Of a DNA stretch of 64,000 nt, positions 1,487 through 42,345 are shown piece after piece. The stretch is taken from the IMG/VR virus record IMGVR_UViG_3300028410_000746, one strand, 5' to 3'. The translations under genes were made by a program, and so were the position numbers. The stretch is from a virus (taxonomy: Duplodnaviria > Caudoviricetes). A model generated the notes under the pieces. That model made no database searches. It worked only from the letters and a program-made list of their open reading frames with translations, and was not told where the DNA came from. The first letter of the stretch is position 1; each line of letters starts with the position of its first letter.

Positions 1487-3202
1487 TCAGGTGTCGTCGA
1501 GTGAGGAGACCATGGCGTCATAGAGCGCCTTGGTCTCCGAGGGGCCAAACACGAAGTCGTCTTCAGCCTCCTCATCGTTGCCAAGGAGGCGCGCCCCCAG
1601 CGCTCCCTCGATGTAACCCATCTTCTTGCTCAAGGTGTCGGATACGTGCTTGTCGATCGTCGCTTCGCCAAAGGGGCCCTCCGCGATAAGGTTCACAGCG
1701 TACACGGATTGATGAGGGGAGCCAATCCGAATCATCCGACCCACGAGCTGGAGAAGGTCCCCCGCGCTCCAGGGCAGATCAAAGAACACCATGACCCGTG
1801 CCTGCTGTAGGTTTATACCCTCAGCCCCGGCCATCGTCAAGAAGATAACCCTGGTGTCGTCAGTCTCCGTAAAGGCGCGTCGGGCTGCGTCGCGCTGGTA
1901 GGTGTTCTCTGAGCCGGTGACCCGAACCATCCCTTTCCCATCTTTGCACGCGCGAGGCTCCCAGGCGCGACCCTCCCCAGGCTCAATGCCCAGCTCGTAA
2001 TCACGCGCCACGAGGAGGTCCTGTAGACGGTCCACCATCTTGCGGAAGCGAGTGAAGACGATCACCTTCTCCTCCGCCAGCTCACCGTCGAGAAGCTCCA
2101 ACAGGAGGTCCACCTTCGGGCTCGCCCCTTCGTTGCCGATCAAGTAGAGGTCGTCCACGATCTCCTGACAGTAGATCAGCTTGGTGAGGTGGCTGGTCTC
2201 CACGGCTGCGTCGTCGGCGTCTGGATCGAACAGGCTCGCCTCGGCCACCATCTCGTGACTCTCGTTGACTGCCAGGAGACCCGCCACTGCGTCCTGGTAG
2301 TGTCGCCATTGATCACGACTCATCGAGACCTTGATCTCCTTGGTCGTCAAGACCGGCAGCTCCTTGGCGACCGTGTGCTTGGCTCGGCCAAGGTAGAAGG
2401 GGTCGATGCGCCCGCGAAACAGCTTGATGTGATCTCGCGTGTGTCCCACGATCATGGGCACCTTGCGTCCGCCCCCGATAGGTTGCATGCGAGTCACGCA
2501 GTAATTGCGCATGAACCCCTTCTCGGAGCTGAAGGTACCGGGCCGAACGACCGAGTAGATGCCGAACCCCTCCATGAGGTTGTTCTTGATCAGCGTCGCC
2601 GTGGCTCCGTAGACCCTCCAGGCGTTGTCCGCCAGACGTTTGGTCATGACGTGGGTGTTCGACTTGGGCGACTTCACCGCCGCAACCTCATCGAGCCAAA
2701 GGACGTACTGGCGACCTCCCAGGTGTGCCTTGAGCTTTCGGTAGTCGATTCTCAGCCGGGGGTAGTTCGTGATCAGGACGCTTGGGTTGTCGGGGTCCCA
2801 CGTCGAGAAGAACTCTTCGTAGACCTTCTCTCGCTGCTTGGCCGTACCGTCTACCATGAAGCAGCGAATGCCCGTGGTGAACTTGTCGAACTCCCCAGCC
2901 CACTGTCGAATCGCGCTCGTCGTCGTCACGAAGATCGGCACGAGGTTCGGCTCGCGTCCCCACAGGAGACACTGAGCCGCGATGGTCATGAGGCTCTTGC
3001 CCAAGCCCGTATCATCCCCGACCACGAAGCGCTTGCGCATGAGCAGGTGGAGGACCATCTGCTTCTGGTAGTGGCGCAGCTCGAAGGGCACGACGCTCCC
3101 ATCCTTGAGCGTCAAGGTTTCTCTCAAGAACGGTGTGTGGGGTAGCGTGATCTGCTCACACTCGCGGACGCGCTGGAGCTTCTCATAGGTCGAATCTGCC
3201 AT
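1487..3202 (-). CDS. SNF2-family (SF2) helicase/ATPase
   Basis: GDDTGLGKS Walker A, WLDEV Walker B, TATLIKNNL motif III, GAEGINLQQARVMVFFDLPWSAGDLLQLVGRMIRIG motifs V/VI. Confidence 0.9.
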   Translation of the reverse strand: MADSTYEKLQRVRECEQITLPHTPFLRETLTLKDGSVVPFELRHYQKQMVLHLLMRKRFVVGDDTGLGKSLMTIAAQCLLWGREPNLVPIFVTTTSAIRQWAGEFDKFTTGIRCFMVDGTAKQREKVYEEFFSTWDPDNPSVLITNYPRLRIDYRKLKAHLGGRQYVLWLDEVAAVKSPKSNTHVMTKRLADNAWRVYGATATLIKNNLMEGFGIYSVVRPGTFSSEKGFMRNYCVTRMQPIGGGRKVPMIVGHTRDHIKLFRGRIDPFYLGRAKHTVAKELPVLTTKEIKVSMSRDQWRHYQDAVAGLLAVNESHEMVAEASLFDPDADDAAVETSHLTKLIYCQEIVDDLYLIGNEGASPKVDLLLELLDGELAEEKVIVFTRFRKMVDRLQDLLVARDYELGIEPGEGRAWEPRACKDGKGMVRVTGSENTYQRDAARRAFTETDDTRVIFLTMAGAEGINLQQARVMVFFDLPWSAGDLLQLVGRMIRIGSPHQSVYAVNLIAEGPFGEATIDKHVSDTLSKKMGYIEGALGARLLGNDEEAEDDFVFGPSETKALYDAMVSSLDDT

Positions 3203-3231
3203 AACTTCAATCTCACGTATCGGAGGAGGCT

Positions 3232-3552
3232 TCAGCCCATTACCAGCTCATAGACGTAGTTCAAGAGCGCGCGGCGAGCCTCTCCTGCCGGGGGGTTCTG
3301 CATTGCATGCAAAATCTCCCCCTCGGTGACTCCGTGAGCCCGTGCCACGTCTCGCAGCTTCTTGTCGCACAGACGCGTGAACGCAGGCTCCATCTCTCGC
3401 GTCAACCACAGGCGGTAGGCCTCAAACGCTTCACGCTTGGGCCCCTCCTGATTCAAAGTACGCCGGCGCTTGATGGCTTCTATGGGACGCTGCTCCGCGC
3501 GCACCTTTCGTACGAGCTGGAGCATGTAGTCGTGATCGGGTGCAGTCGTCAT
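3232..3552 (-). CDS. Hypothetical protein
   Basis: 106-aa ORF in a co-directional operon. Confidence 0.6.
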   Translation of the reverse strand: MTTAPDHDYMLQLVRKVRAEQRPIEAIKRRRTLNQEGPKREAFEAYRLWLTREMEPAFTRLCDKKLRDVARAHGVTEGEILHAMQNPPAGEARRALLNYVYELVMG

Positions 3553-3631
3553 GGGGCCAGCTCACGTAGAGAGGGTGGCGGCCTTCGAGCTTGGAAGGCC
3601 GGGATGTGCATCTACAGGAGCCACAACGAGA

Positions 3632-4216
3632 TTACCGGGAGTTGCGCCTCACGTGACGCCACACCTCGATCGCCGACTCCCCGAACATCTCACTGGGGGC
3701 GGGCACCTCCAGTCGAGTCTCATGGAGAATCCCATCCGAAATGTTGGAGCGGGCTTGCACCTGATGAGAGATGAGCCCGCCCACCTCCTCAACCGTGAGC
3801 TGATGCTTGCGCCCATCGTTGTAATAGAACCCCGCCGAGATGAAGTCCTCGACGCACTCATGACTCAAACACTCTCGGATGACGTTGGAGGCGCCGAGGG
3901 TAGGCATCACGACGTCCAGCGCGAAGAGCGAGATGATGCGAACCGGCTTCAGGAGGTGGATGACCTCGTGGACCTTCTTCATATCGGTGAAGTCCAGACA
4001 GACGGCATCTCCCTTGGGGTGTTGGTCCGTCGGCTTGTAGACACTCGGCTCGCTGACGAGGCTCCGCCCGATCTCACACTGGCCGGCTCCCAGATCCAAC
4101 ACGCACCCACATGCAGGAGGTCCGAGTTGGCGAAAGGCTCGCTGATGACGTGGCTGCGACGCCTTCGCCCACGTGGCATAATCGCTCCAGAACTTGTCGC
4201 TCGCATGGGACATCAC
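3632..4216 (-). CDS. Class I SAM-dependent methyltransferase-like protein
   Basis: VLDLGAGQCEIG motif I; CLDFTD motif. Confidence 0.6.
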   Translation of the reverse strand: MMSHASDKFWSDYATWAKASQPRHQRAFRQLGPPACGCVLDLGAGQCEIGRSLVSEPSVYKPTDQHPKGDAVCLDFTDMKKVHEVIHLLKPVRIISLFALDVVMPTLGASNVIRECLSHECVEDFISAGFYYNDGRKHQLTVEEVGGLISHQVQARSNISDGILHETRLEVPAPSEMFGESAIEVWRHVRRNSR

Positions 4217-4286
4217 GGACTCCCTTCGTTACCACCTCTGAAGTTCTATCCGTAAAGGGTAGTCCCTCCCGTACGGGGGCGTCAAG

Positions 4287-4943
4287 TCAGTTGAAGGAGA
4301 GGCTGACTCCGAACACGGAGATGAGGTCTCCAGTGCCGTACTCCACTGCCGCACCTCCCAGGAGGCCGAGATTCTTGGTGAGGTCTACCCCCAGGCTCAG
4401 GCCTCCTTGCTTGAGTCCCGAGTGCGCCTGTACGTGAAGCATGCGCCAGTAGAAGGGCTCGAAGGCCAGCACCGGGTCGAACATCTCTCCAAGCTCTCCG
4501 CCGAGGTTGCTTGGGAGCCACACGAAGCCTAGCTTGACGCGAAGGCGAAAGCCCCACTCCGGGGCCACCGGGGGCTTCTGTTTGGTGACCGCCACGTTGT
4601 TGTCCACGCTGAACTTGAGCTTCCAGCGGCACCACCTCAGCTCCCCCTCCAGCTTGTCGTCGGTCAAGACTTGGCCATCTCGCGTGATCACGACCCGCTG
4701 GTCCTTGAACTCCATGTCCAGGTCCCCGGACTGGGCCGAGTCGATCATGCAGTTGTGGTTCTCGGCCACTTCGGACAGCTCGGCCGCCTGCGCGTTCGTC
4801 AGACACTTGTACCCAATAGGACACTCCGCAGGCGGCCGCTCCAGGGTGCGCAGCTCTCGCTCCTGAGCGTATACATCCTCCGCGACCAGGACGGTGTTGA
4901 GAAGGACCAGGAGGGCGGTCAGGAGGACGTACGAGCGTTGCAT
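4287..4943 (-). CDS. Secreted/outer-membrane protein, possibly spanin-like
   Basis: N-terminal signal peptide; C-terminal alternating beta-strands ending VFGVSLSFN; sits with membrane genes. Confidence 0.45.
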   Translation of the reverse strand: MQRSYVLLTALLVLLNTVLVAEDVYAQERELRTLERPPAECPIGYKCLTNAQAAELSEVAENHNCMIDSAQSGDLDMEFKDQRVVITRDGQVLTDDKLEGELRWCRWKLKFSVDNNVAVTKQKPPVAPEWGFRLRVKLGFVWLPSNLGGELGEMFDPVLAFEPFYWRMLHVQAHSGLKQGGLSLGVDLTKNLGLLGGAAVEYGTGDLISVFGVSLSFN

Positions 4944-4951
4944 GGGCTACC

Positions 4952-5491
4952 TCACTTGAGCGCGTCCAGAATGTCCTTGGATACGCGTTTGGGACCTTCG
5001 ACCACGGTGATCTCGACCTTGCCGGGCTTGGTCAGGATCACCGTGTCAACGTCCGTGTCTTTGACTCCAGTTGGAAGGCGCAGCTTCTTGGTGGAAGCCT
5101 CCCCTTCTTCGGTCTCGGGGACCGCGACCTCCAGGACGTTACGGTCCCGGAAGGGGTTGCGTCTGCGGTCGACTACGGTAACCTCTCGCTGTACGAATCC
5201 TTCGTCGTCAGGCTCGCCCACTTCGATCGGCTCGCCGTCTTTCTGCCGACCCTCAGGCACACGGTTCACCTGCACCTCAAGGCTGGGCACGTCTTCTGCC
5301 TCGTCCCGGCCAAAGAGCCACCCCAGTACGCCGCCCACGTTGAACGCATCACCCACCCCGAAGAGGAGGAGGACTACCGCCACGACCACGACCACGAGAG
5401 CAATCACGAGTGCCAGAGGGTAGCGCAGCGTATAGTTCCAGACCGTGAGGCCCCACCGCTTGATGCGGCTCCATGCGGTCTCATCACTCAT
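4952..5491 (-). CDS. Single-pass membrane protein, possibly i-spanin-like
   Basis: Long hydrophobic helix LALVIALVVVVVAVVLLLFGVG near the N-terminus. Confidence 0.5.
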   Translation of the reverse strand: MSDETAWSRIKRWGLTVWNYTLRYPLALVIALVVVVVAVVLLLFGVGDAFNVGGVLGWLFGRDEAEDVPSLEVQVNRVPEGRQKDGEPIEVGEPDDEGFVQREVTVVDRRRNPFRDRNVLEVAVPETEEGEASTKKLRLPTGVKDTDVDTVILTKPGKVEITVVEGPKRVSKDILDALK

Positions 5492-5954
5492 GGTAGTCGT
5501 CCGTACGGTCGTCCACGAAGGGAGAGTCCACGAAGGTCACCTTGGGCGGCGAAGGACGGAGGACGTCCTCAGCGCGTGCGAGGCTAAAGGGCATCGTGGA
5601 GGCTGAGTCCGCCTGTGGAAGCGAGATCTGAGGTACCAGCGCAGCAGTGGGCGCAGCAGTGGGCGCCGCAGCGGGAGCTGCTGGACCAAAGATGGGCGTG
5701 GCCTGTGATCCACGGGCTCCCAGTCGACCTCGCATGATCTCGGCAAGAGGGCCCGAGAGCTTCTTGCCGAAGTTGTAGGCGAAGAGGACGAGCAGGATGT
5801 CGAACATCGTGTTCGGCACCGCCTTGGTGGCGGCCCAGAACCAGATGTGGGCTCCAAACACGACCCAGCACATGAGGCGGCCCATGCTCAACTCGTTATT
5901 CTCAATGAGGACGGCGCCCCACTTGACGGCTTTGATACGGTCCCACATGGTCAA
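5484..5954 (-). CDS. Holin-like membrane protein
   Basis: Two hydrophobic segments (LMCWVVFGAHIWFWAA; MFDILLVLFAYNFG) then a basic KK and a low-complexity tail. Confidence 0.5.
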   Translation of the reverse strand: MTMWDRIKAVKWGAVLIENNELSMGRLMCWVVFGAHIWFWAATKAVPNTMFDILLVLFAYNFGKKLSGPLAEIMRGRLGARGSQATPIFGPAAPAAAPTAAPTAALVPQISLPQADSASTMPFSLARAEDVLRPSPPKVTFVDSPFVDDRTDDYHE

Positions 5955-7120
5955 CTCTCCTCAGTATGATAGGGTAAGTGCAGGTGCAAGGTCGTACCCT
6001 CTCCAACGGTGCTCTCCGCGTCGATAGTACCACCTGCACTGCGCACAAAGTGATAAACGAAGTACAACCCCAGACCCGAGCCTGTATCCACGTCTCGCGT
6101 GGTGAAATACGGAGTGAAGACTTGCTTGAGCGTGTTGGCGTCCATGCCACACCCGTTGTCCGTAAAGCTCAGGACGATGCAGTTCGGGTGGTGGGGCTTG
6201 TTACACATGTGCGTAAGGATGCGTATGGACGCCTCCTCTTCCAGGCCCTTGGTGGCACGCATGGCGTTGTCGAACAGGTTGGTCAAGACTTGGGAGAATC
6301 GGGGCCCGGACATCTCAATGAGCTTGTCTTGAGCGAGGTCATTCTCCATCGAGAACACCCCCACATAGCGCTTGGTGGGCTCCACGAAGCTCATTGTCTG
6401 CACGTAGTTGTTGAGCGCATGTCCCAGATCAAGGAAAGCCCCCTGGGGAGCCGTCAGCTCACGCATGGGAGCGGTCATGTCGTTGAGGATCTGTGACATT
6501 CGCAGGAGCGCCGTCCGGGTGCCCTCAAGAGAGGTAGAGAGGTCGACGTCTTCGGACTCCGAGGAGATCTCCAGGAGGTCAAGGTATCCGCGAGCGGTAG
6601 CCAGAGGCGTCTTTAGCTCGTGGTTGAGACCGAAGAGCATGATCTGAAGCCTCTCCGCCCACTTGTGCTCCTCCTCTGCCAGGATCACGGCGTGTGTCGC
6701 CGCTACCTCGATGAATATGATCAGTGTCGCCCCAAACGCATCATGCCGATAGAAGCGTACGAGATGCTCATCGGAGCGTCCCTTGAGGTAGAGACCTTTA
6801 ATGAGCATCGGCTGGCGGAACTCCCCCAGGGCAAAGAGGGTGTCCAGGAGGGTATGGCAATCCTCCCGCACAAAGTCGTACAGGGAGCAGTACCCAAGCT
6901 CGTCCAGGGTGAGACCTACGTACTCCAGGGCCGGGGGGTTGGCGTGGAGGAGGTCTGCGTTGAAGTCGGTCTGGAAAATGACGGAGACGTTCTCATAGTA
7001 GCTGGCGAGACTTGCAACCACCTCCACGCCCTCGGAGAGATGACGATCCTCAGGCGGCCTTCGCCACATGCCTCGCCACTTCTTCCAGAAACGACCGAGC
7101 TGCGAAATGGTCTTTCTCAT
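5951..7120 (-). CDS. PAS-domain sensor histidine kinase (start may be ATG 7069)
   Basis: PAS-like ANPPALEYVG; H-box LNHELKTPL; N-box LTNLFDNAMRA; G1 DNGCGM; F-box VFTPYFTT; G2 GSGLGL; no transmembrane helix. Confidence 0.95.
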   Translation of the reverse strand: MRKTISQLGRFWKKWRGMWRRPPEDRHLSEGVEVVASLASYYENVSVIFQTDFNADLLHANPPALEYVGLTLDELGYCSLYDFVREDCHTLLDTLFALGEFRQPMLIKGLYLKGRSDEHLVRFYRHDAFGATLIIFIEVAATHAVILAEEEHKWAERLQIMLFGLNHELKTPLATARGYLDLLEISSESEDVDLSTSLEGTRTALLRMSQILNDMTAPMRELTAPQGAFLDLGHALNNYVQTMSFVEPTKRYVGVFSMENDLAQDKLIEMSGPRFSQVLTNLFDNAMRATKGLEEEASIRILTHMCNKPHHPNCIVLSFTDNGCGMDANTLKQVFTPYFTTRDVDTGSGLGLYFVYHFVRSAGGTIDAESTVGEGTTLHLHLPYHTEES

Positions 7121-7430
7121 AGATCCGCTCTCCCGTGGCCGAGGCGGCCCGATACTCAGGGCTTTGGGGGTGACACCCGGTCAAGAATATGACCGGGCAC
7201 GTATGGCCCTCTTCCCGTAGCCAATGGTAAAACTCCACTCCTCCAGTGCCGTTGATGATCAGATCAATGACCACGCAGTCCGGGTCGTTCCCCGCTTCGG
7301 AGAGGCTCTCCTTGGCCAGTCTGATGGCGTGCGCCTTCTCAGTGCACACCTCCACGTCGTAACGCAGGGAGAGGATGGACTTGAGCATGCTCGCCATCTC
7401 GGTATCGTCTTCGATTACCAGGACCTTCAT
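7050..7430 (-). CDS. Stand-alone receiver-domain response regulator (CheY-like)
   Basis: MKVLVIEDD acidic pocket, VVIDL phosphoacceptor Asp, IFLTG Thr, YEK Lys. Confidence 0.9.
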   Translation of the reverse strand: MKVLVIEDDTEMASMLKSILSLRYDVEVCTEKAHAIRLAKESLSEAGNDPDCVVIDLIINGTGGVEFYHWLREEGHTCPVIFLTGCHPQSPEYRAASATGERIYEKDHFAARSFLEEVARHVAKAA

Positions 7431-7434
7431 AAGA

Positions 7435-7875
7435 TCACTTCTCTCTCTGGGGACCCTGCACAGGAAGTGCAGGCTCTTGGTCGTTAGTCTTGCTCTCCAC
7501 CTTCTGAGTCGCAGCGGCCGTCTGGAGGTCCACCGTCTTCATGAAGTAGGTCGTAAGGCTGCCGACCAGGAGCAGGATGATGGGCCATAACCACTTCATG
7601 GTCTTGATGGAGCCGTTGATCTGCTGCAAGGTCGCCGTGTTTGCCATGACGAGCTTGGTGATCTCCTTGCGGTCCTCAATGTCTTGCTCCAGGGTCTGCT
7701 CGACCGACTGGAGCTTGAGCGTCATCTGAGACTGGTTCTCGGAGACCTCCTCAAGACCGGACCCGAACGACTCAAAGCGCTTGAAGATCTGATCGTCACG
7801 TGTCTTACGGACGGACCTCTCCGCCGTAAGGCGCTCTTCGAGACGTGTGAGCCTCTCCCTTCCCTCTTCATTCAT
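7435..7875 (-). CDS. Coiled-coil protein with C-terminal transmembrane helix (XhlA/holin-like)
   Basis: Heptad-rich N-terminus followed by KWLWPIILLLVGSLTTYF. Confidence 0.5.
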   Translation of the reverse strand: MNEEGRERLTRLEERLTAERSVRKTRDDQIFKRFESFGSGLEEVSENQSQMTLKLQSVEQTLEQDIEDRKEITKLVMANTATLQQINGSIKTMKWLWPIILLLVGSLTTYFMKTVDLQTAAATQKVESKTNDQEPALPVQGPQREK

Positions 7876-8045
7876 TTGGGGCCCCCTTCGCGTCGCAACA
7901 GGGTGCGAGCTTGGTCGGTTTGGTGTCGGATCTCATCCGTCATACCTTCCTTGACTGCCCTCGTCTTCAAGTATACCAAACGACCTTTGGCCCATTCTAC
8001 TGCGCGAGTACCTCTCAAATCAGTGGCACGGAGCTTCCTTGACAT
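7872..8045 (-). CDS. Small basic hypothetical protein (57 aa)
   Basis: AAGGAGG RBS then ATG (MSRKLRATDLRG...); its TGA overlaps the next ATG (ATGA); below the ORF-track cut-off. Confidence 0.55.
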   Translation of the reverse strand: MSRKLRATDLRGTRAVEWAKGRLVYLKTRAVKEGMTDEIRHQTDQARTLLRREGGPK

Positions 8046-8075
8046 GGGGCCCTCCTTTACGGTACCCCCAAGATG

Positions 8076-11000
8076 TCAGGGGCAATCCGGGTCGATTCCC
8101 GGCGTCAGAGGATCACGAGTATCCGCGACCTCAATATCATCAGGCCGGGGGAGACGTCGCCCTCCCTGAACCAAGGGTCGACCCTCGATTCGGTACCGGT
8201 CGACGGCGTTGCTGCCCTCTCCCAGACCTGTCGGGTGGGTCTGTAGTACCAAATCCATAAACTCATTAGTGAGGGCCCCGGACGTGTCAAGCTCCTTGCC
8301 CAAACGCAGGCCCGTAGCGATCACGAGCTGAAGCTCGTCACCATAGCTGACCTGCCTCTCACTGGTCGTGACGCTCTGCTTCTGAACACGCACGAGCAGC
8401 GCAACCCCCAGGAGGGCTCCGCCGTGCATTGAGAGGTCCTCAGGGCGAGGCGAAGCGAGGTATCCAAGGTCCTTGGAGACGCGTGGGCCCGAGAGCGTCA
8501 TTGCGCCTCCAGGGTTACGACCACTGGCTACCGTCGCCGTGCCGCCACGGTAGGTGCGGTAGAGCAGGAAGTTCGGGTCGTACCCAGTAAGGGCTGCCGA
8601 GCCCGCCGCCGTACCATCCGAGAGCAGCAACGCTCCGTCAAGCCACGTCTTCGAGAGCGCGCGGTCGTAGCGGTAATCACCCGGCACGTCCAGAGATACG
8701 CCAGGAGTGAAGAAGCGCTCGGCAGATCGCCCGAGACCCTCTCCGAGGAAGTGTGCGTCCGAAGCGAGGATACCCAGGGGCAACCGCTCGGTAGCTCCCA
8801 GCATCTGCGCTCCCACGTAGCGGGCGATGGTCACTCCTCCAGCCGGAGCCGGGTGAGCACGAACCTTGGACGGGATCGGGGCGTCCGCAGCAGACGTGTA
8901 GGGGTAGGCGGCCAGCGAAAGGTAGCCCACGTCCGTGTAGCTTCCCGAGACCACCGGGCCCGAGAGCGCCCCGGTTCCCAGCGTCGTGACGAAGGGGAAA
9001 GAGGCTACGATCTCCACAACCCCAGGGTTCTCCACGCGCGCTTGAGATGGGTCCTCAAAGGGCTGCCCAAGCTGCGTGATCTGCGTGGGGTTCTCCGAGG
9101 TACGCTTGGGCACGTAGTCAAGCAGCTCCACGCTGCCCGTGTCCGTGGTCGAGATGGGCATGGTGCCGTAGATAGCTCCCTGGTAGGGGATACGCGTGGA
9201 GACGACCGAGATCTGGTCTCCCGCCTCGGCAGGTCCCGGTACGAAGAGCTGGTAGCTCCTGTCCGCTGTGCCTGCACCTGCCAAGCGATGCACGCGCGTG
9301 TAGTCCTGCGTCCAGTCGTCGAAGAAGAAGGCCGCGAACTCGAAGACGAGCGGGCTGTCCACCAGCTCTCCTCCCAGGTAGGACATGTCCAGGACGTCCT
9401 CCGGGATCACGAAGGTGTTGTTCTGCGTGATGATGAAGCTGCGGCGCTCTCCGTCCTCGCGCAAGAGGTTGTCACGCCCCACGCCCGAGTCCGTACGGAA
9501 CGGCGCTGCGGCCGTGTCCGAGAAGTTGGAGACGCCGGGGCTGTCCGTGTAGAAGTCCTCCTGCCTGTAGACGGCGAAGAGGCGCGCGATGCCGTAGTTG
9601 GCCGGGATCTCAATACCCCGCACTCCACCCGCATTGTAGTAGCGACACGCGAGCGCGTTGACACCACCAGGGCCTCCGCCCACGCCGGAGAGGTCGGGGT
9701 AGGTCCCGAAGTCTCCCAGGGTCAGGTTGAGCGGATCATAGACCGCCACGACCCGCTGCTGAATGAACGGGGCGTTGACCGACTGCGAGCCGGAGAGGAA
9801 CAGGTGGTTGATGCCGTACGCAGGAGCGGTCGATGTGGCCGTTCCTGCGGCGCGTGAGCGTACGAAGGGCACATCATGGCGTCCCAGTGCCCCTCGAAGC
9901 TCGCGAGGCACCAGAAGCGAATCTGAGCCCGGTGTGAGATTGAACAGGCCGGTCACGTCCGAGTAGCTGCGCGCCGAGGGGACCGGCTGTGGGTCCATGC
10001 GTGCCGAGATGTTACGCATCGGCTGGTAGATCAGCGTCTTCGAGCCGGGATCAACATAGGCCTCTCCCCATACCGTCTCGGGCGTCTCAGGCTCACGAAG
10101 CGAACGCACAGGAGTTTGAGCGTTGCGCAGGTGCGGGTACGACTCGCCGGGGAGCACGTTGGAGCGTCGAATGTTCGCGGTCGGGCTCGCTGCTTGGTTC
10201 GCGAACGTGTTCTCGCGCACGAAGAGTGACGGGGTGGCCGCGTCAAGGTCAACGTAGAGGCTGACCTCCGGAGAACGCGCCAGACCCTGGACCGGATGGT
10301 AGAGCAGGTCATGCGAGAGGTAGAGGGCCGAGTCGGTCGCGGCCGTACGGCCCGACGCCAGCGCGATGAACAGGCTGTCGTCAGTCTCCGAGCACTGCTC
10401 CAGGTAGAGACCCCAGGTACGGTTGGTCGTGCCGCCCGTATCAAAGCCGGGTGCTCCGCCGTCCGGGGTCTGAACCACAAGAGCACCTCCCGCCACGTGC
10501 CCTACGACCCGGAACGCGCCGTGGTTGAGGGGACGCGTCGAGGTAGGGTCAGTGCCGGGAGTGAGCAGCAAGAAGGCCCCCGCCTCCAGGATGGCGTCAA
10601 TGTCTGCGCTAAAGTCCAGGCTCACGTCTACCGTGCCCCCTGCCGGACCTTGAATCGACGTGGCCGAGTTGGCGAACGTGATCGCGGTCGTACCCGAAGA
10701 CGCGACCGAGAGGCCGTCAAGAGGCGTACCCAGGACCACGAAGTCTGGATCAACGTCGCCGCTGCTGGTCGAGTACGCGTCCCGACGATCAGGGTCCGCG
10801 CTATCCGGGTCCGTGTCCCCGTACCATACGCGCACGGGCGCGTGCGTGGTCCCGTCGTACTCGTAGGGATGGACGAATCGGACCTTCTGGTCGTTGACCG
10901 ACGCGAACGTGTTGCGGTACTGGTCCAGTGCGATGGCGACCACATCACGAGGGTTCCAGTTCTCGGCCGCCGCCGAATCCTGACGGAAGATGTCCACCGT

Positions 11001-12500
11001 CGGGTTGAAGGGGAGGTCCGAAGAGTTCTGAGTCGACCCGTTCGATCCCAGGACGACCAAGTTGTCCGGCTGGAGCACGCACGCATCCGAGAACACGCGA
11101 CGGAACCCGTCAGGAGCGTCCCCCTTGATCTGGAAATCAGGAGCGACGGCAGAGCCTCCGAGGTAGTCCACCTGGAAATGGCGCGTCCCCTTCACGCCTG
11201 CTGAGGAGCGCTTCCAGGTCGTCTGCATCTCTCCCTTGAGAACGCGGCCGAGGTTGTGCTTGAGGAGCCCGTCAAAGTCGACCGGGCCCATGCCCACGAC
11301 GTGTCGGAGATCGTGGATGTCGTCGGCCACGACCTGATCGCTGAACAGGCCCAGAGGGTGTCCAGTGACGTGGAGAATCTGTGCTCCGATGGCATGGTTC
11401 GTAGCCACGGTCCCACGGTCACCGCGCGTCGCCAGGGTCAGCGTGTTGCCTACATAAGACGTGTAGGCCATGACCTCGCCATCAACCTTGATCAGACCTC
11501 CGCCCGAGTTGAACGTCGTAGAGGACGCCACGGTGTCCACGCTCAAGGAGAGGTCAGTGGGTCCAACAGCTCCCGTCAGCGTGATCGTGGGGAGCACGCG
11601 CGCCTGAGTACGGTCACTGGCAGAGGGATTACGGTTGACCGCACCCGCCTGTGCCAGGGCTGACCAGTTCGCCGTCGAGCGGCGGAAGACGAAACACAGG
11701 GGGATGGCGTAGACGTAGCCGTCCACGGTGCCAAGGAGCCCGTTGCTTCCATCGCCATCACCCGCGCGCCAGAGGCCTGCATCGCCCAGCGTGTCACACT
11801 GGTTGGTGAACGTGTAGAGAGCGTTGGCCGAAGCCGTGGGCACGTCCAGCGTGCCTTGAGCTTTGATCTGCGCGTTGAAACCGAAGGGGTTGAGCGTCGG
11901 GTTCACGGCAGAGACAACACGCAAGCGGTACTGGATCTGTACGCGCTCCGTGGTCTCAATCCCGATGGCCGGGTCGAGGAAGTCCTGTACGGGGTTGGTG
12001 CCTCCGTACTCGACGTTGCCGTAACGCCAGACCGTATCCACGCCGGGCTTTGAGGCCGTGCCTGAGGGAGCGATCTGCGCCTTCCACACCTCCAGGAATA
12101 CGAAGTTGACGTCTGCGTCGGTGGTCGTGGCCTGAGGAGGCGGGAGCGTGATCGCGTTACGCGTGCCGACGTTCCCTGTCCCGATCACGGGAATCATCCA
12201 GCCGTTGACGTGGGCCCAGATGATGTCTCCGTCGTCCCCGGAGGTCTCCTTGCCCAGCCAGAACAGGTTCGAGGCCTGCGTGGACGTCTCGAAGTCGTCT
12301 GCGGCTCGGATAGGGTCCCCGATGAACCCGGAGGGGATGTTGGCCTTGATGAGCGCGCGGCGAGCCTCTTCGCTGATCTGAGAGAGCAGGTTCAGCTCCG
12401 AATCCAGCGGCGGCCGGTTCTTCTGAAAGACCGGCGAGAGGAAGTTGCGAGCCTGCGCGGTCAACGTGCGGGAGACGCCTTCTCCAAGAAAATCGGTCAT
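8076..12500 (-). CDS. Large virion baseplate/tail structural protein
   Basis: 1474 aa, G/T/S/D-rich; N-terminus (GVSRTL...VFQKNRPPLDSELNL...NGW) paralogous to 19555-22131. Confidence 0.7.
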   Translation of the reverse strand: MTDFLGEGVSRTLTAQARNFLSPVFQKNRPPLDSELNLLSQISEEARRALIKANIPSGFIGDPIRAADDFETSTQASNLFWLGKETSGDDGDIIWAHVNGWMIPVIGTGNVGTRNAITLPPPQATTTDADVNFVFLEVWKAQIAPSGTASKPGVDTVWRYGNVEYGGTNPVQDFLDPAIGIETTERVQIQYRLRVVSAVNPTLNPFGFNAQIKAQGTLDVPTASANALYTFTNQCDTLGDAGLWRAGDGDGSNGLLGTVDGYVYAIPLCFVFRRSTANWSALAQAGAVNRNPSASDRTQARVLPTITLTGAVGPTDLSLSVDTVASSTTFNSGGGLIKVDGEVMAYTSYVGNTLTLATRGDRGTVATNHAIGAQILHVTGHPLGLFSDQVVADDIHDLRHVVGMGPVDFDGLLKHNLGRVLKGEMQTTWKRSSAGVKGTRHFQVDYLGGSAVAPDFQIKGDAPDGFRRVFSDACVLQPDNLVVLGSNGSTQNSSDLPFNPTVDIFRQDSAAAENWNPRDVVAIALDQYRNTFASVNDQKVRFVHPYEYDGTTHAPVRVWYGDTDPDSADPDRRDAYSTSSGDVDPDFVVLGTPLDGLSVASSGTTAITFANSATSIQGPAGGTVDVSLDFSADIDAILEAGAFLLLTPGTDPTSTRPLNHGAFRVVGHVAGGALVVQTPDGGAPGFDTGGTTNRTWGLYLEQCSETDDSLFIALASGRTAATDSALYLSHDLLYHPVQGLARSPEVSLYVDLDAATPSLFVRENTFANQAASPTANIRRSNVLPGESYPHLRNAQTPVRSLREPETPETVWGEAYVDPGSKTLIYQPMRNISARMDPQPVPSARSYSDVTGLFNLTPGSDSLLVPRELRGALGRHDVPFVRSRAAGTATSTAPAYGINHLFLSGSQSVNAPFIQQRVVAVYDPLNLTLGDFGTYPDLSGVGGGPGGVNALACRYYNAGGVRGIEIPANYGIARLFAVYRQEDFYTDSPGVSNFSDTAAAPFRTDSGVGRDNLLREDGERRSFIITQNNTFVIPEDVLDMSYLGGELVDSPLVFEFAAFFFDDWTQDYTRVHRLAGAGTADRSYQLFVPGPAEAGDQISVVSTRIPYQGAIYGTMPISTTDTGSVELLDYVPKRTSENPTQITQLGQPFEDPSQARVENPGVVEIVASFPFVTTLGTGALSGPVVSGSYTDVGYLSLAAYPYTSAADAPIPSKVRAHPAPAGGVTIARYVGAQMLGATERLPLGILASDAHFLGEGLGRSAERFFTPGVSLDVPGDYRYDRALSKTWLDGALLLSDGTAAGSAALTGYDPNFLLYRTYRGGTATVASGRNPGGAMTLSGPRVSKDLGYLASPRPEDLSMHGGALLGVALLVRVQKQSVTTSERQVSYGDELQLVIATGLRLGKELDTSGALTNEFMDLVLQTHPTGLGEGSNAVDRYRIEGRPLVQGGRRLPRPDDIEVADTRDPLTPGIDPDCP

Positions 12501-12543
12501 GATCGGGTGCTCACTCTAGTGTGTAAGGGCCGTCGCCCCTACC

Positions 12544-13179
12544 TCAGTAGAGGAGGGCGAGCGACCCGATGTAATAGCGCTGGCCGGGCGTGCTGTTCTC
12601 AAAGCGTACTCGGAGCTGATTGCCGGACCCCGCGAGTAGCTCAGGGGTCAGGTGTGTCACCTGAGTATACGTCGCGCCATCATCATTGGATACAAAAACA
12701 TCAACAAGGTCTGGCTCGACTCGCTGATAGACCACCTCGGAGGTGCGCGTGCCCGTTCGCGTGAGCGTGTACAGATCCCAGTACACCGCGAAGTCCTCGA
12801 AGAGGCCGTCCGCCGAGACGTCAATCGTATCCGTCTGCAAGCGTCCGTTCTGCGCCCCTACTGGATCATAAGCCGCCAGGAATGCCCTGTAGACACCAAC
12901 ACCTCCCATGATGTCCGGGTCCGTGAGGTCCCAGACGCCGGCCGTATCCAGCTCATCGAAGAAGATGTTGGTGTAGCGAGGCGCGAGCGCCAGCAACGCC
13001 GCGAACTTCTGATCTCTCAGCTCATCGGAGTCAAAAGGGACCACCGACTCGTCGATAGAGAGGTCGTCCGGGACGTCAACCACACGAAAGCCCTGGACAG
13101 ATACGCCCGTGAGGCGGGAGTAGCTGGCCTTGATTTGAGAGGTCGCGCGGTCAAGCAGGTAGAACGGCATGGCAATCAC
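12544..13179 (-). CDS. Putative virion structural protein
   Basis: 211-aa beta-rich ORF between tail genes. Confidence 0.55.
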   Translation of the reverse strand: MIAMPFYLLDRATSQIKASYSRLTGVSVQGFRVVDVPDDLSIDESVVPFDSDELRDQKFAALLALAPRYTNIFFDELDTAGVWDLTDPDIMGGVGVYRAFLAAYDPVGAQNGRLQTDTIDVSADGLFEDFAVYWDLYTLTRTGTRTSEVVYQRVEPDLVDVFVSNDDGATYTQVTHLTPELLAGSGNQLRVRFENSTPGQRYYIGSLALLY

Positions 13180-13206
13180 ACCCTGTAGAAAGAGGAGAAG
13201 GAACGA

Positions 13207-16200
13207 TCAGGTGATCCAGTGCACGCTGGTCTCGATGAAGATGTCACCGGTAGAAGCGCCCTCGTTGAACTGAGTACCTCCCGAAGCCGGACGCACGAGC
13301 ACGTTGGCGACCTGGACGTTGTTCGTGAACGCCGCCAGGATCACCGCGTCACTGGTCGGAGAGCTGAAGGGGTACCCCTCCATCTGTCCACCCGTAATGC
13401 TCAGGTTCGCGTTCGTCCCGACCCCGGTGTTGTTGGTCTCCACAGCGGCGGTGCCACCTCCAGCTCCACGGAAGTAGCAGCCGGTGATGTTCACGCCGTC
13501 CATGAGACCGTCAACGTAGATGCCAGCTCCCACCGTATGCACGATCTGACAGCCCGTGATCACTGCCTGAGGCTCGTCTGCGAATCCTCCGTCCGTAGAC
13601 TCACGAATCCGGATGGTCGCCGTGGCTCCCGCTACCGCGTTGGTAAGCTGAGTACCCGTGATGCGTACGAACCCGCCCTCAACGTCCACGACCTCTGCGA
13701 GACCCGTGGCCCCTCGAAGCTGGCAGTTGCTGATCTGGAGCTGCGAACCGTTGGAATCCTGGAACGCGCGGATACGGCCCTCAATCGTGGAGTTGTCCAG
13801 GAACATGCGGCCCGCGTCGAGCGTGATCCGGCAGGACTCGCCCACTCCCGCGATTACGCCTTGAGCGATCTGCTCCTCAGTCAAGCCCGCGACGAACTTG
13901 CAGTCCGAGATGCGAAGCACCGTCCGGCTTGACGTGGAGCCACCCGAGATGCTCAGGTTGTTACCCGTACATCCCTGGAGAGTAAGCTCGCAACGATCTC
14001 CCAGGAGGAACGCATTGAGCGCGCTGCCTGCAAGCTGGTCGTCAATGAACTCACAGTCCGTGAACGACATGATCGCACCGTCGAGCCCGAAATTGCCGTC
14101 CACGATGCTGTTGGAGACGTCGTAGGTGAACTTGCACCCTCGCGCGCGCACACGCAGGGGAGCGATGAGGGTCGAGATGCCCTGCACGATCGAAGATGTT
14201 CCTCCATCAATCGTGCAGTCGCTCATGTCCACGTTCATGTTCACGATGCTCGTACCCGCCGCGCCGTCTCCGACGAGCCGGGAGTTGAAGCTGATGAACA
14301 CGCGCGTGTTGTTCATGGAGAAGCGTCCGTCCGCTCCCGAGAAATCGAACAGGTTGGTCGTGGGCCCCGTATCACTGCCACCCTGGAGCAGCGAGTCACG
14401 GATCACCATGCGGTTGTCACCGCTGACCCCAAACGTTACGAGACTTTGAGAGAACACGGAGACGAAGCGCACACGCTCAAAAACAGCCCTCGTATCCACC
14501 GAGAGGAACGTCGCGACCTGCTCGGGGACACCCAAGCTTTGCGCGAAGACGTCCAGGTCCCTCAAGGTCACATCGTCACTGCCCGCACCGAAGCTGCGGA
14601 AGATGTCAGGTGCCGTAGAGAGCGCCTGCGTGCCGAAGTTGTTCAGGATGAAACGGCCGTTACAGATCTCAACGTTCTGCGCGCCCTCATCGTTTGCGTT
14701 CGGGAGGTCGACGCTGCGACCCAGGACGAAGGGCCCAGTGCCCGCACCCCCCGTGTAGTTGGTGATCGTGAGGTCGTGACCTGCGAGGTCGAGCTTGATG
14801 TTAGAGGGGATGAAGACCTCATCCTCGCTGGCTCCACTAAGCGTGACGTCTTCCAGGAGACGGATCGTGAAGGCACCCAGCGGGTCCGGGTTGTTGTCCA
14901 CATCCTCCGGGTTGAGCAGCCCAACATAGGAGCACGCAGCGCGGAGGGTCTTGAACATCCCCTGAGCACCGACAGTCACTGCCGTGGTGTCGAGCACCGC
15001 AGACGAGAACCTGCGAAGGTCGTGCAGCTCCGAGACCGCAATAGACGCCCCGTCCCAGTCAACCTGAGCCAGGGGGATGCCCACGTTCGAGCCCCCCTCA
15101 AACGTCTCATCGAACGCGCCGTCAGTTGACACGATCGTCTCAACCTCCAAGGTGGTCACGTCAAAGTAGAAGAAGTACGTGCCGGCAGCCTCTCCCGTGA
15201 AGTCCAGGCTTGAGGCAACTCCGGTCGCAAACACGGACCCACCGCTGATCGCGAGGAGGGGATGCTTGACCACCACCTCGGTGACGTCTACCTGCGTCGC
15301 GGAAGCGAGCGAAGAGACTCCACCAGACACGACGAACTTCGGATACGCGAGGTTGCTCACCTGAGACGCGCCACGCAGGCTCGACTCATAAGGCACAGCG
15401 CGACCCGAGAGCGCACCTGAGATGCGCACGTCGGTCACGTCCGTCTCGATACCCTGGCTGGTCGTATCAAAGCTGAGCTGACGCTGGGGTGTGTTGGCGT
15501 AGCCCCACTCCTGTACGACCTGGATGGCGTCCACGACCGCGTTTGACGGGAAGCCAAGCGCCACGTGAGCGTTACCAAGACCAAAGTACAGCTCTCCAGT
15601 CGCCTGGATGCGTACACGATCTCCGGTCGCGTCTGTGATAGCCTCCGAATCGAAACGCTGAGGCGTCAACCCCAACGCGGTCTCGGCAGCGGTGTAGGCT
15701 GCCAGGAGGTCCCCGGCAAGATCTGCGGCCGAGGGCGCAGCTCCCGGTGCGATGGTGAACGAGAAGTCCACGCCGTTGGCCGTGATCTCGATGCCATCGT
15801 TGGTATCCAGGACCACGACGGGCCATATGCCATCGTTGGACGAGAGCGTCTGCTTGAGGCCCTCGCTCATACGCACGTCGTACAGGTTCGTACCGGAGAG
15901 CGTCGGACGAATCACCGTACCAGCCCTACGAAGCTCCGTATCGGCCAGACCCAGGGCCACGTCCGTGCGAACCGCTCGCGCCGACGTACGGTCACGTGAG
16001 AGCGACTCAAGGCGGACTCCCTGACCTCCGGCGAACGTCGAACCTGACTCCACCAGGAGACGCTCCTGTGGGGGCGTGTCATGGTAGATGTCGGCAGCCG
16101 ACGTGGAGGGCAAAGAGGCCTCCAGACCTCGCTCACCGACCTCCAGACGTACCTTTCGGTGACCACGGAACGCGTTGAGGCTCGGGTCGGTAGAGAAACC

Positions 16201-23364: not shown

Positions 23365-23504
23365 TCTGTGCCAAGAAGTCACATGAGCGGAATCACGTAA
23401 GTATTCGGTTTTCAAAGACTTTCAGAGTCCAGTGCCAAACAAGGTCACCCTTGGGCGACACTCTCGACGTCCTTATGGTAACCTTGAGGGTGGAGGCGTG
23501 TCAA
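23365..23504 (-). promoter_or_regulatory. Leader and sigma70-type promoter of array 1
   Basis: TTGACA (23504-23499), 18 nt, TACCAT (23480-23475); leader homologous to 42499-42638. Confidence 0.8.
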
Positions 23505-41961: not shown

Positions 41962-41978
41962 GGTCAAACTCCAGGGTG

Positions 41979-42221: not shown

Positions 42222-42345
42222 GAGGTTTGCAGCTCTTTCCACATGCGGTACATGTGGGCGCGGATGCGGTCATAAGAGTCCGTGTCGCCTTTTTGAGCGA
42301 TGCCGCGACCCTGGAGCGTGAGGAACACCTCTCCAAAAGCCTCAT

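Follow-up and report, generated by a model that had tools for sequence, protein, structure and literature searches.

A conserved histidine kinase-receiver pair and a linked membrane protein as a putative signalling cassette in a subclade of huge phages

Bacteria rely on two-component systems as their chief means of sensing. The general view of phages is that they listen in on host signalling or have borrowed individual parts of it. The sole phage kinase found in the literature searched is AgrC of the Clostridioides difficile phage phiCDHM1, which is encoded together with agrB and agrD and has no response regulator of its own. This AgrC is of the membrane type, is 61% identical to the host gene, and was recently acquired from the host (Hargreaves et al., 2014; PMC3901668). 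Hybrid histidine kinases have been attributed to the brown-alga virus EsV-1 (Delaroque et al., 2001, as cited in PMC6324907). In addition, the divergent receivers of jumbo phages named cREC are described as never occurring with histidine kinases and as linked to NAD+/ADP-ribose systems (Iyer et al., 2021; PMC7824862).

In this study, a 64,000-nucleotide stretch of DNA (the window) from an uncultured lake-water phage of roughly 373 kb was analyzed. It carries a soluble PAS-DHp-CA histidine kinase of 389 aa at 5951-7120 and a receiver-only response regulator of 126 aa at 7050-7430, both on the minus strand. An earlier note on this DNA had placed intact, overlapping kinase and receiver genes exactly there, and both genes were complete, with an out-of-frame overlap of 71 nt at 7050-7120 in which direct reading of the sequence shows dual coding. 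The neighbouring genes from 1487 to 12500 discussed below lie on the same strand.

The kinase was assigned by Pfam, AF2, Foldseek, and alignment. Pfam domains HisKA (residues 164-215, E 1.9e-8) and HATPase_c (residues 274-384, E 1.2e-20) were detected, and the protein belongs to the broad NtrB/AtoS/ZraS-like HisKA group. No Pfam PAS-clan match was obtained for the window's kinase at E <= 0.01, and the orthologue P0009 alone had a precomputed PAS match (PF00989). The PAS-like sensor domain (residues 40-140; 6701-7003) was recognized from the AF2 monomer model and structure alignment, where this region had a pLDDT of 86-93 and a 2-strand/3-helix/3-strand PAS topology, with strands at 47-51, 56-60, 105-112, 118-126, and 131-138 and three intervening helices. 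The DHp domain was modelled as two long helices (143-186 and 194-223), and Foldseek aligned the full-length model with the PAS/LOV-kinase structures 4gcz, 4i5s, and 3a0r. In a 19-residue hydropathy scan, residues 128-149 were the only stretch flagged. The model assigns them to the final PAS strand and the beginning of the DHp helix, and the kinase was read as having no transmembrane segment. The earlier description of the kinase as cytoplasmic is thus right.

The H, N, G1, F, and G2 boxes were all kept in the 17 kinase sequences aligned. Invariant residues were H167 in HELKTPL (codon 6622-6620), N281/N285, D321-N-G-x-G325, F335/P337/Y338/T340/T341, and G347/G349/G351, and no conserved cofactor-type Cys or His was seen in the PAS domain of this alignment. 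The kinase also has the H-E-x-x-T motif beside His167. This is the phosphatase motif of HisKA kinases, suggesting that the protein may act as a phosphatase as well.

Two further elements of the kinase deserve attention. Residues 2-19 (7064-7117) form a Trp/Lys/Arg-rich amphipathic helix, as judged from the motif, the hydrophobic moment (0.56-0.76), and the AF2 model, in which these residues are helical; the net charge is +3 to +7. The motif M-[KR]-K-I-[TIN]-S-x-L-x-x-[WF] occurred in 7 loci, with the variant M-R-R-M-I-S in L002 and L006, and the helix is likely an in-plane membrane tether. The other element is the hairpin C306-x-K308-x-H310-H311-x2-C314 (6179-6205) in the ATP-binding domain, which was located by alignment. 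The motif is invariant in 17 orthologues and absent from the 8 bacterial relatives aligned, and is thus clade-specific. By analogy, this hairpin is a candidate metal or redox site. SrrB of Staphylococcus aureus has a redox-sensitive disulfide in its ATP-binding domain (PMC8774646), and the cysteine pair within the catalytic domain of the phage kinase could likewise make its activity redox-responsive. Unlike in SrrB, the two cysteines of the phage hairpin flank two invariant histidines and a lysine, so a metal site is as possible as a redox site.

The receiver matched Pfam Response_reg (PF00072, E 1.2e-12), and its AF2 model showed the complete five-fold beta-alpha fold (pLDDT 90.6), with a TM of about 0.8 to the receivers of ArcA, PhoP, RR468, and DivK. 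Residues E7, D8, D9, D56 (the phospho-acceptor, codon 7265-7263), T84, and K106 were invariant in 15 receivers, and in the same 15 sequences the alpha4-beta5-alpha5 face was nearly invariant. Most receivers have a Lys-Pro cis-peptide after strand 5. Here this dipeptide is replaced by Lys-Asp, K106-D107-x-F109 being invariant in the clade, and the Pfam match covers only profile positions 1-83 of 111; together these features mark the switch region as atypical. No output domain was present on the receiver, its listed orthologues (126-136 aa), or the four cluster representatives from the receiver profile search (130-157 aa). The phosphorylated form must therefore act by protein binding, and the anatomy of the sequence and the model fits the suggestion, made earlier, of a receiver-only protein that signals by contact. 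The receiver is more conserved than the kinase, at 49-76% versus 38-55% identity to the window's proteins.

The overlap between the two genes was 62-98 nt in the four relatives measured (five loci). It encodes, in two frames, the beta5-alpha5 end of the receiver and the N-terminal amphipathic helix of the kinase. The kinase ATG lies within the receiver codons Tyr104-Glu105, a Tyr-Glu position shared by all seven loci, and its Shine-Dalgarno-like GGGAGAG lies within the codons Thr99-Gly100-Glu101. In the database annotation, the kinase begins at ATG 7069; since the peptide beginning at ATG 7120 is kept in all seven loci examined, 7120 is the true start. This conserved out-of-frame overlap joins the two genes into one translational unit.

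Directly upstream of the receiver gene, a third cassette member at 7435-7875 codes for a tail-anchored protein of 146 aa. Sequence and hydropathy show that a charged coiled coil makes up the N-terminal part of this protein (about residues 1-93) and that it ends in a single membrane helix (WLWPIILLLVGSLTTYFM) and a short tail. Its orthologues occupied this position in 7/7 loci and shared an invariant N-terminal motif and a KW-x-WP motif ahead of the helix. The gene was not detected in 28 loci of relatives lacking the two-component system, a result that could partly reflect fast divergence of the coiled coil in distant relatives. No Pfam HMM supported the protein. Its Atlas language-model neighbours were viral DUF7201 clusters (0.93; 194/256 features), hmmscan of the orthologues gave no DUF7201 among the 25 families listed out of 35, and a weak XhlA match (E 0.015) was found in one of five orthologues, with profiles PF10779 and PF23831 considered. 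The architecture, a coiled coil with a C-terminal helix, is the same as in the XhlA/DUF7201 type.

Contact between the receiver and residues 1-93 of the 146-aa protein was predicted with a score of 0.42 (runs 0.42, 0.48, and 0.33). The best of 3 controls scored 0.00, the runs shared at least 93% of contacts, and the pLDDT of the partner was at least 85. Of 80 solved complexes, 58 reached the mark of this tool, as did 2 of 110 mismatched pairs; at scores of 0.60 or lower it was reached by only 7 of the 80 solved complexes and by both passing mismatches. These counts hold only roughly, as the alignments here were own-made. A pass at this level is more often wrong than right unless the pairing was likely beforehand. 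The verdict on binding of the 146-aa protein by the receiver was weak support.

The cassette has defined neighbours on both sides. Upstream of the 146-aa gene is a gene for a 57-aa basic soluble protein (7872-8045), whose stop overlaps the 146-aa gene start by 4 nt; conservation of the protein is weak (19-52% identity), and L004 had no called counterpart. It is the first gene after that of a 1474-aa fibre-like giant protein (8076-12500) with weak PHROG tail and tail-fibre matches (E 2.5e-6 and 9.6e-6), whose N-terminal segment is common to an 858-aa protein at 19555-22131 and whose 1452-aa neighbour has a Beta_helix domain (27 bits; cut-off 25.9). On the other side, 2 nt past the kinase stop and preceded by a GAGGAG site, starts the gene for a 154-aa membrane protein that combines two hydrophobic helices with an Ala/Pro-rich tail (5484-5948; sequence and hydropathy). 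Its Atlas neighbours are unnamed viral small membrane proteins. Orthologues were present in 6 of 7 cassette loci, L004 being without one, and in relatives lacking the two-component system this position is taken by another multi-helix membrane protein, whose tail is Pro-rich. Next come genes for a 179-aa membrane protein of bitopic topology, whose helix is N-terminal and whose external domain is acidic (4952-5491; hydropathy), and a 218-aa secreted protein with a signal peptide (4287-4943; sequence), for which Atlas structural matches to outer-membrane barrel or PagL-like models were weak (TM 0.3-0.43). Both are backbone genes outside the cassette: among the 28 loci of relatives without the two-component system, the 218-aa family was found in 15, and the 179-aa family likewise in 15, upstream of the SNF2 helicase. 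Further downstream, an SNF2-family helicase (1487-3202; Pfam SNF2-rel_dom and Helicase_C) starts the replication module, with DnaB, DnaG, and PolA coming after it in relatives. The three-gene cassette is inserted in a conserved cluster of envelope-protein genes, shared with relatives lacking the two-component system, between the tail-fibre-like and replication modules.

In total, 17 kinase and 14 receiver orthologues were found on independent large metagenomic contigs with the gene order kept. Synteny was kept in the seven loci for which DNA was available, which come from independent assemblies and different samples, and two further contigs, represented by gene tables only, had the same order. 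Every close relative found carried the pair in identical order, including the complete, DTR-closed genome G001 (437,490 bp), which has exactly one REC and one HisKA domain. Pairwise identities of receivers and kinases were correlated (r = 0.86, 21 pairs), consistent with descent of the two as a unit. Within one subclade of huge phages, the cassette genes have been inherited together. The nearest cellular kinases were at most 31% identical (best match E about 1e-17), and a search of 1.84 billion representatives with the receiver profile retrieved only 4 clusters at E <= 1e-30. As far as these sequence comparisons reach, the cassette has no close cellular relatives and is not recently host-derived. 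The GC3 of the pair was 0.74, similar to that of the flanking phage genes (0.72-0.83, except 0.55 for the 57-aa gene). With these values and the syntenic relatives, the DNA is phage-borne across the junction. The chimeric host insert that the earlier note had named as a refuting condition was rejected on the synteny in independent assemblies and the conservation of catalytic residues, and its other condition, absence of the pair from all relatives, is contradicted by the relatives found.

Taken together, the favoured reading as a whole, to which we assign a probability of about 0.55, is that the phage owns a working three-gene signalling cassette, with output via the 146-aa protein counted as the leading candidate route. 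That the kinase and receiver are a functional cognate pair is highly probable. Output through the 146-aa membrane protein, taken as a separate step, is a tentative assignment with odds somewhat below even. In the mechanism proposed, the kinase would be held at the inner face of the host membrane by its N-terminal amphipathic helix, and its PAS domain would read an intracellular cue, to which the Cys/His hairpin possibly adds a redox or metal input. Autophosphorylation on His167 would be followed by transfer of the phosphate to Asp56 of the receiver, which would then use its invariant alpha4-beta5-alpha5 face to bind a protein. As its target, the 146-aa protein inherited with the pair is the best candidate, with the cytoplasmic coiled coil as the binding site. 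In this way, the physiological state of the host might be converted into a membrane event of the infection, for example the timing of lysis, the exclusion of other phages, or a remodelling of the envelope. A more specific version, which we consider unlikely, is a three-component membrane switch in which a peripheral PAS kinase with a Cys2His2-type hairpin senses energy or redox state and the phospho-receiver docks on the cytoplasmic coiled coil of the tail-anchored XhlA-like protein and gates the adjacent holin-like protein. If so, a huge phage would time lysis or the exclusion of competitors by a phosphorelay; holin-antiholin timers are the lysis timers known so far.

The alternative that survives best is that the phage kinase, the phospho-receiver, or both act on host proteins, with the membrane neighbours unrelated; in a variant, the kinase phosphorylates or dephosphorylates host regulators and reprograms the cell. 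CheY, DivK, and CpdR act on the flagellar switch, a cell-cycle kinase, and a protease adaptor, respectively. An interaction face that is nearly invariant over deep divergence, on a receiver with no output domain, fits a very conserved host target, and the kinase comes from a broad NtrB/AtoS/ZraS-like group. In addition, the complete relative G001 has no DNA-binding regulator or second receiver, and the more distant huge phage G005 has two orphan receiver-only genes and no HisKA kinase, so receivers dependent on host kinases plausibly occur in this group. However, the strict linkage to the 146-aa gene and the tight translational coupling point to a self-contained module, and the distance of the pair from any cellular pair argues against matched specificity with host partners. 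Cross-talk with the host is considered less probable than the favoured reading. The suggestions of the earlier note, that the pair times lysis or cross-talks with host motility or developmental phosphorelays, are speculative.

The earlier note had placed the pair in a lysis-like cassette, between tail genes and holin/spanin-like membrane genes. The location was borne out in so far as the upstream genes are large and fibre-like and the pair is flanked by genes for small membrane or secreted proteins. The holin/spanin likeness was not supported as stated: the small neighbour proteins had no Pfam, PHROGs, or NCBIfam match, and none to a family of holins, spanins, or endolysins. The 218-aa protein lacks a lipobox and greatly exceeds o-spanins in size, and the external domain of the 179-aa protein looks beta-rich by eye rather than coiled-coil, so these two do not fit a spanin pair. 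Across the cluster, from the 57-aa to the 106-aa gene, no gene had a hydrolase domain. The test for murein hydrolases in G001 covered three families: Phage_lysozyme (PF00959) and Amidase_2 (PF01510) were absent, and PF01464 occurred at 290.5 kb and 430.7 kb only, the cassette being at about 69 kb, which leaves the sole small SLT-domain ORF more than 220 kb away. With no hydrolase nearby, and with the 179-aa and 218-aa genes also present in many relatives that lack the two-component system, the term lysis-like cassette was not upheld. These results also weigh against a dedicated lysis clock, in which a flanking holin/spanin set would be triggered at a time set by the pair. Several features speak for such a clock, namely the position within a cluster of membrane and secreted proteins, the resemblance of the 146-aa protein to XhlA-type holin accessories (including the weak match of one orthologue), the two helices of the 154-aa protein, as in class II holins, and the weakly predicted binding of the receiver to the 146-aa protein. 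On balance it is rather improbable, and it is similarly doubtful that lysis timing specifically is the event controlled by the proposed cassette.

A less probable reading still is that the receiver is a phosphate sink or decoy, which drains host kinases (or the phage kinase in reverse) and silences a stress- or defence-related pathway. The receiver-only architecture and the H-E-x-x-T motif kept by His167 agree with this. However, a sink would need neither a dedicated kinase with a conserved sensor domain nor an invariant alpha4-beta5-alpha5 surface, and the receiver profile search showed no similarity to any host receiver. Finally, although GC dips slightly at 6-8 kb (0.577 versus about 0.61) and kinase matches among deposited phages are mostly unannotated phage-labelled fragments, host genome records, and prophage-edge genes, it is hardly credible that the pair is an assembly chimera or recent host passenger DNA without a phage role, given the same genes in the same order in seven DNA loci and two gene tables including a DTR-closed genome, the GC3 shared with the flanking genes, orthologues down to 38% identity with all catalytic residues kept, and no close cellular homologue.

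In this subclade of huge phages, a complete kinase-receiver pair with all catalytic residues has been retained through deep divergence, and receiver-only proteins, either paired with a kinase or alone, recur in huge phages. The retention, the overlap, and the linkage to a membrane protein imply that these viruses sense something in the infected cell on their own behalf and act on it at the membrane. The three small proteins offer a compact, testable system for a physiological decision of a lytic virus.

Among known systems, orthodox bacterial pairs of a soluble PAS kinase and a receiver-only partner, such as ThkA-TrrA of Thermotoga maritima (PDB 3a0r), are similar in combining a cytoplasmic PAS-DHp-CA HisKA kinase with an adjacent stand-alone receiver, and the canonical kinase boxes (H, N, G1, F, G2) and D-D/D/T/K receiver residues are shared. 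The phage pair differs from them in residing in a huge phage, in its identity of at most 31% to cellular kinases, in the 62-98-nt overlap, in the N-terminal amphipathic helix and the Cys/His hairpin insert of the kinase, in the Lys-Asp instead of Lys-Pro of the receiver, and in the obligate linkage to a tail-anchored coiled-coil protein. The receiver resembles CheY, DivK, Spo0F, and CpdR as a receiver-only protein acting by contact, and its fold matches DivK and other receivers at a TM of 0.7-0.8, but it has no sequence kinship with them beyond the domain, and its switch spacing is Y-E-K-D-x-F compared with Y-x-x-K-P-F in single-domain regulators. Like cREC, it is a receiver-fold protein of very large phages; unlike cREC, it is canonical and paired with a kinase. 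EsV-1 is likewise a large DNA virus that keeps two-component signalling proteins; however, it is a eukaryotic giant virus and, as far as the citing article describes it, has hybrid kinases rather than an operon of separate kinase and receiver genes, with no relation in sequence or context. A histidine kinase carried by a phage is also found in phiCDHM1, where AgrC is thought to let the phage join cell signalling, whereas the kinase described here is soluble, of the HisKA class, anciently resident in phages, and paired with a receiver of its own.

The minus strand carries every gene in the cassette part of the window, including a kinase of 389 aa (5951-7120, minus strand) with HisKA and HATPase_c matches in Pfam, and a receiver of 126 aa (7050-7430, minus strand) with a Response_reg match. 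In sequence and alignment, the kinase has the H-box H-E-L-K-T-P-L and complete N, G1, F, and G2 boxes, and the receiver holds the E-D-D pocket, Asp56, Thr84, and Lys106. No PAS domain was called in the kinase by Pfam; in an AlphaFold2 model built on 17 orthologues, residues 40-140 form a PAS fold (pLDDT 86-93), and the full kinase model aligns with PAS/LOV-DHp-CA structures such as YF1 (4gcz), VicK (4i5s), and ThkA (3a0r). The receiver model (pLDDT 90.6) is an entire receiver domain with no further domain attached. According to these Pfam matches, motif boxes, and models, the earlier note was correct in describing a PAS-HisKA-HATPase kinase with a receiver-only regulator. Conservation in the orthologue alignments is higher for the receiver than for the kinase, and the receiver's alpha4-beta5-alpha5 face is invariant at G85 C86 H87, P91 E92, A96, T99 G100, Y104, K106 D107, and F109, with Lys-Asp where Lys-Pro is usual. 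This face is the target-binding surface of single-domain regulators.

The pair is also truly viral. A chimera or a recent host insert is excluded because one gene order recurs over samples, the pair lies in a complete genome, no close cellular kinase exists among the matches, and GC3 is the same for the kinase and receiver genes (0.74) as for their neighbours. The shared order, seen in loci and gene tables, runs from giant protein to PolA: giant protein, ~205 aa, giant protein, ~56 aa, ~140 aa, receiver, kinase, small membrane proteins, SNF2 helicase, DnaB, DnaG, and PolA. In the protein database the window's kinase is assigned to a contig of 373,477 bp. All 17 kinase orthologues (38-55% identity) are on metagenomic contigs of up to 160 kb, and after them there is a gap down to cellular PAS kinases, with 31% identity at most (E about 1e-17). 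The receiver orthologues, 126-136 aa throughout, number 12 in the database (53-75% identity) plus two from the fetched loci (49% and 56%). When a receiver profile was searched against 1.84 billion cluster representatives, only four clusters had E <= 1e-30, below which the scores dropped to generic multi-receiver proteins. The pair was also found on two IMG/VR contigs, one of which, G001, is 437,490 bp long, has direct terminal repeats, and was judged complete; it stood in for the whole genome of the phage in the window. Searched whole, it contains one receiver domain, one HisKA domain, and one further HATPase_c domain, which is in a 655-aa frame and probably belongs to a topoisomerase-type ATPase.

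With the SNF2 helicase as the query, 29 IMG/VR loci were retrieved (36-73% identity, contigs of 57 to 448 kb), and the pair lies within 10 kb of the helicase only in the 437-kb genome. No HisKA kinase was detected in five more distant genomes searched whole, three of which are complete. Because 28 of the 29 loci have no nearby pair and the five distant genomes have no HisKA kinase, the pair is a trait of one subclade. In this subclade, identity between versions of the pair falls to about 40% and all catalytic residues are kept, and the pairwise identities of receiver and kinase correlate (r = 0.86), as would be expected if the two descend as a unit. Among the five distant genomes, the complete G005 (407 kb) carries two orphan receiver-only genes unrelated to the receiver studied here, L045 (G005:C1:396126-396431) and L046 (G005:C1:30613-30954); they have the canonical Asp, Ser, and Lys-Pro, in a genome without a HisKA kinase.

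Among deposited phage genomes, no match was found for the DNA or for the 1452-aa neighbour protein. The tblastn matches of the kinase in deposited phages were all below 30% identity and useless as relatives. They mostly represent unannotated fragments labelled phage, host genome records, and prophage edges; examples are kdpD and glnL, in records named 'Acinetobacter phage MD-2021a', and the final gene in Bacillus phage proCM3. PHROGs includes kinase-like families; kinase genes of phage or prophage records have thus been catalogued, even if not studied.

The structural genes are interspersed with three short CRISPR arrays of type I-E-like repeats, at 22971-23383, 41978-42068, and 42345-42498, which have 7, 2, and 3 copies at a spacing of about 61 nt; their translation gives the recurring 'PRVRGDVP' peptides of spurious ORFs. 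The repeat was tried as a pointer to the host. A degenerate pattern occurred once each in three actinomycete genomes (Streptomyces, Saccharothrix, and Actinokineospora), which is too weak an indication, and no CRISPR array with that repeat was present in these three genomes. In addition, ARAGORN labelled a tRNA with anticodon CTA at 51742-51814 as tRNA-Pyl; it reads amber, in a genome that otherwise follows the standard code.

In transcription order, the cassette region codes for a basic 57-aa protein, a 146-aa protein (7435-7875) in which a charged coiled coil precedes a single C-terminal membrane helix, then receiver and kinase, a 154-aa membrane protein that has two helices and a tail rich in Ala and Pro, a 179-aa protein bearing a membrane helix at its N-terminus, and a 218-aa protein with a signal peptide. 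These genes are tightly packed, with gaps of -8 to +8 nt. The 57-, 146-, 154-, 179-, 218-, and 106-aa proteins match no family in Pfam, PHROGs, or NCBIfam, and Atlas searches on the small neighbour proteins gave leads only. A promoter and terminator scan of 3000-13500 returned counts at chance level, from which an operon boundary cannot be set.

Gene classes were set by orthologue profiles applied to 7 loci with the pair and 28 other loci. The 146-aa protein, receiver, and kinase were detected together in 7/7 of the former and in none of the 28 others. The 179-aa and 218-aa families were also found directly upstream of the SNF2 helicase in 15 loci of relatives lacking the pair, and are therefore backbone genes. 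Two such relatives, L021 and L026, have after the giant gene a small soluble protein, then a different membrane protein, with several helices and a Pro-rich tail, and lastly the 179-aa and 218-aa families. In L004, the most divergent of the cassette loci, the 154-aa gene is missing and gene calling gave no 57-aa gene. Its frame L004:11032-11526 was rejected as a 154-aa orthologue because it belongs by eye to the 179-aa family; its HMM scores are circular, as the sequence was used in building both profiles. Since the 146-aa protein, receiver, and kinase co-occur only in cassette loci and the 179-aa and 218-aa families are more widespread, the unit gained is, from gene content, three genes, coding for the tail-anchored 146-aa protein, the receiver, and the kinase, set within an older cluster of envelope proteins.

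The surroundings of this unit have features of their own. The 179-aa membrane and 218-aa secreted genes (window 4287-5491; L021 8433-9939; L026 6873-8120) stay paired throughout the broader clade of huge phages, in every case directly upstream of the SNF2 helicase, and the 218-aa protein weakly resembles small outer-membrane barrels in structure. About 730 nt between the 218-aa and 106-aa genes (3553-4286) have no counterpart in relatives; they contain a 194-aa ORF (3632-4216, minus strand) with no Pfam or NCBIfam match and a VLDLGAG motif reminiscent of SAM-dependent methyltransferases. Inteins with LAGLIDADG domains interrupt the SNF2 helicase and/or DnaB genes of relatives (L001 15581-18544; L002 5837-8944 and 9884-12880; L004 12449-15247), and the 571-aa SNF2 helicase of the window has none. 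The upstream giant proteins look like fibres or spikes, because they have weak PHROG tail-fibre matches, a Beta_helix domain in the 1452-aa protein, and a common N-terminal segment in two of them. The giants of 1474 aa (8076-12500) and 858 aa (19555-22131) start alike (G-V-S-R-x-L ... V-F-Q-K ... L-D-S-E-L-x-L), and this segment may serve both of these distinct fibre-like proteins as a common attachment domain.

The kinase starts at ATG 7120 and not at ATG 7069 of the database gene call, and its N-terminal peptide is kept in all seven loci with DNA. In these loci it reads M-[KR]-K-I-[TIN]-S-x-L-x-x-[WF], followed by further Trp, Lys, or Arg, and the motif occurs once per locus. The start codon is made by the invariant Tyr104-Glu105 codons of the receiver (TAT GAG), and the purine-rich ribosome-binding stretch by its invariant Thr-Gly-Glu codons. 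The last strand and helix of the receiver and the first helix of the kinase are co-encoded over 62-98 nt in the measured loci; translation is therefore coupled. The N-terminal helix of the kinase is strongly amphipathic and cationic (hydrophobic moment 0.56-0.76, charge +3 to +7), a signature suggesting that it binds the membrane as an in-plane anchor. The ATP-binding domain has, between its N and G1 boxes, a further feature: an invariant hairpin, C-x-K-x-H-H-x2-C, which is missing in 8/8 aligned bacterial relatives. A redox-sensitive Cys pair is located in the ATP-binding domain of SrrB (PMC8774646). The hairpin could be a redox site or, equally possibly, a metal site.

The hairpin would be a second candidate input beside the PAS domain, in which no recognisable cofactor motif was found. 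The H-E-x-x-T motif is associated with phosphatase activity in HisKA kinases, and its presence suggests that the kinase is also a phosphatase. The signal would have to leave the receiver by protein contact, because the complete genome has one kinase, one receiver, no output domain, and no second regulator. The most likely target would be the cytoplasmic domain of the 146-aa protein, because its gene is strictly co-inherited and coupled with the pair. In complex prediction, the receiver and residues 1-93 of the 146-aa protein scored 0.42 (runs 0.42, 0.48, and 0.33) and the best of three controls 0.00, with runs agreeing in at least 93% of contacts and a partner pLDDT of at least 85. In the calibration of the tool, which is only roughly valid here as our own alignments were used, 58 of 80 solved complexes and 2 of 110 mismatched pairs attained the passing mark; scores of 0.60 or under account for just 7 of these 80 complexes and for both mismatched pairs that passed. 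The prediction is thus a hint that weakly supports the contact, not evidence of binding. Action of the cassette on host proteins is a possible alternative to this target, and the receiver might possibly serve as a phosphate sink.

A dedicated lysis clock is a further possible role, and the earlier note had placed the pair in a lysis-like cassette that could time lysis to host physiology. The lysis label could not be confirmed. The gene cluster of the cassette region contains no hydrolase, the 218-aa protein has no lipobox, and the external domain of the 179-aa protein does not look coiled-coil. Phage_lysozyme and Amidase_2 are absent from the complete relative G001, and its SLT domains are only in a 238-aa frame (290.5 kb) and a 1254-aa frame (430.7 kb), far from the cassette at about 69 kb. 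For a lysis link there are resemblances of architecture only: the 146-aa protein has the build of holin accessory proteins of the XhlA type, with a weak XhlA match in one orthologue (E 0.015), and the 154-aa protein has two helices, as in a class II holin. The language-model neighbours of the 146-aa protein are viral DUF7201 clusters, for which a literature search found nothing. The function proposed in the earlier note is possible but unsupported. Near the only small SLT gene in G001 there is no clear holin, and a lipoprotein gene is found at a distance of two genes; this lipoprotein-type ORF (L015 6255-6821, at about 292.8 kb of G001, 188 aa, signal L-S-A-C) may be part of the true lysis region.

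In the open-access literature searched, the coverage of which is incomplete, no paper was found on phage-encoded two-component systems by name. The AgrC of phage phiCDHM1 is a kinase of recent host origin that is explicitly stated to lack a regulator (PMC3901668), and hybrid kinases are described for the algal virus EsV-1 (PMC6324907). In the jumbo-phage survey of Iyer et al., only a divergent receiver was reported, never linked to kinases (PMC7824862). The closest architectural analogue is ThkA-TrrA, a soluble PAS kinase with a receiver-only partner, and the parts of the cassette are ordinary members of the HisKA kinase and receiver families. Taken together, this is a real, conserved, phage-owned two-component cassette, with its unusual features being the dual-coding overlap, the putative amphipathic anchor, the Cys/His hairpin, the Lys-Asp switch region, and an obligate third membrane partner.
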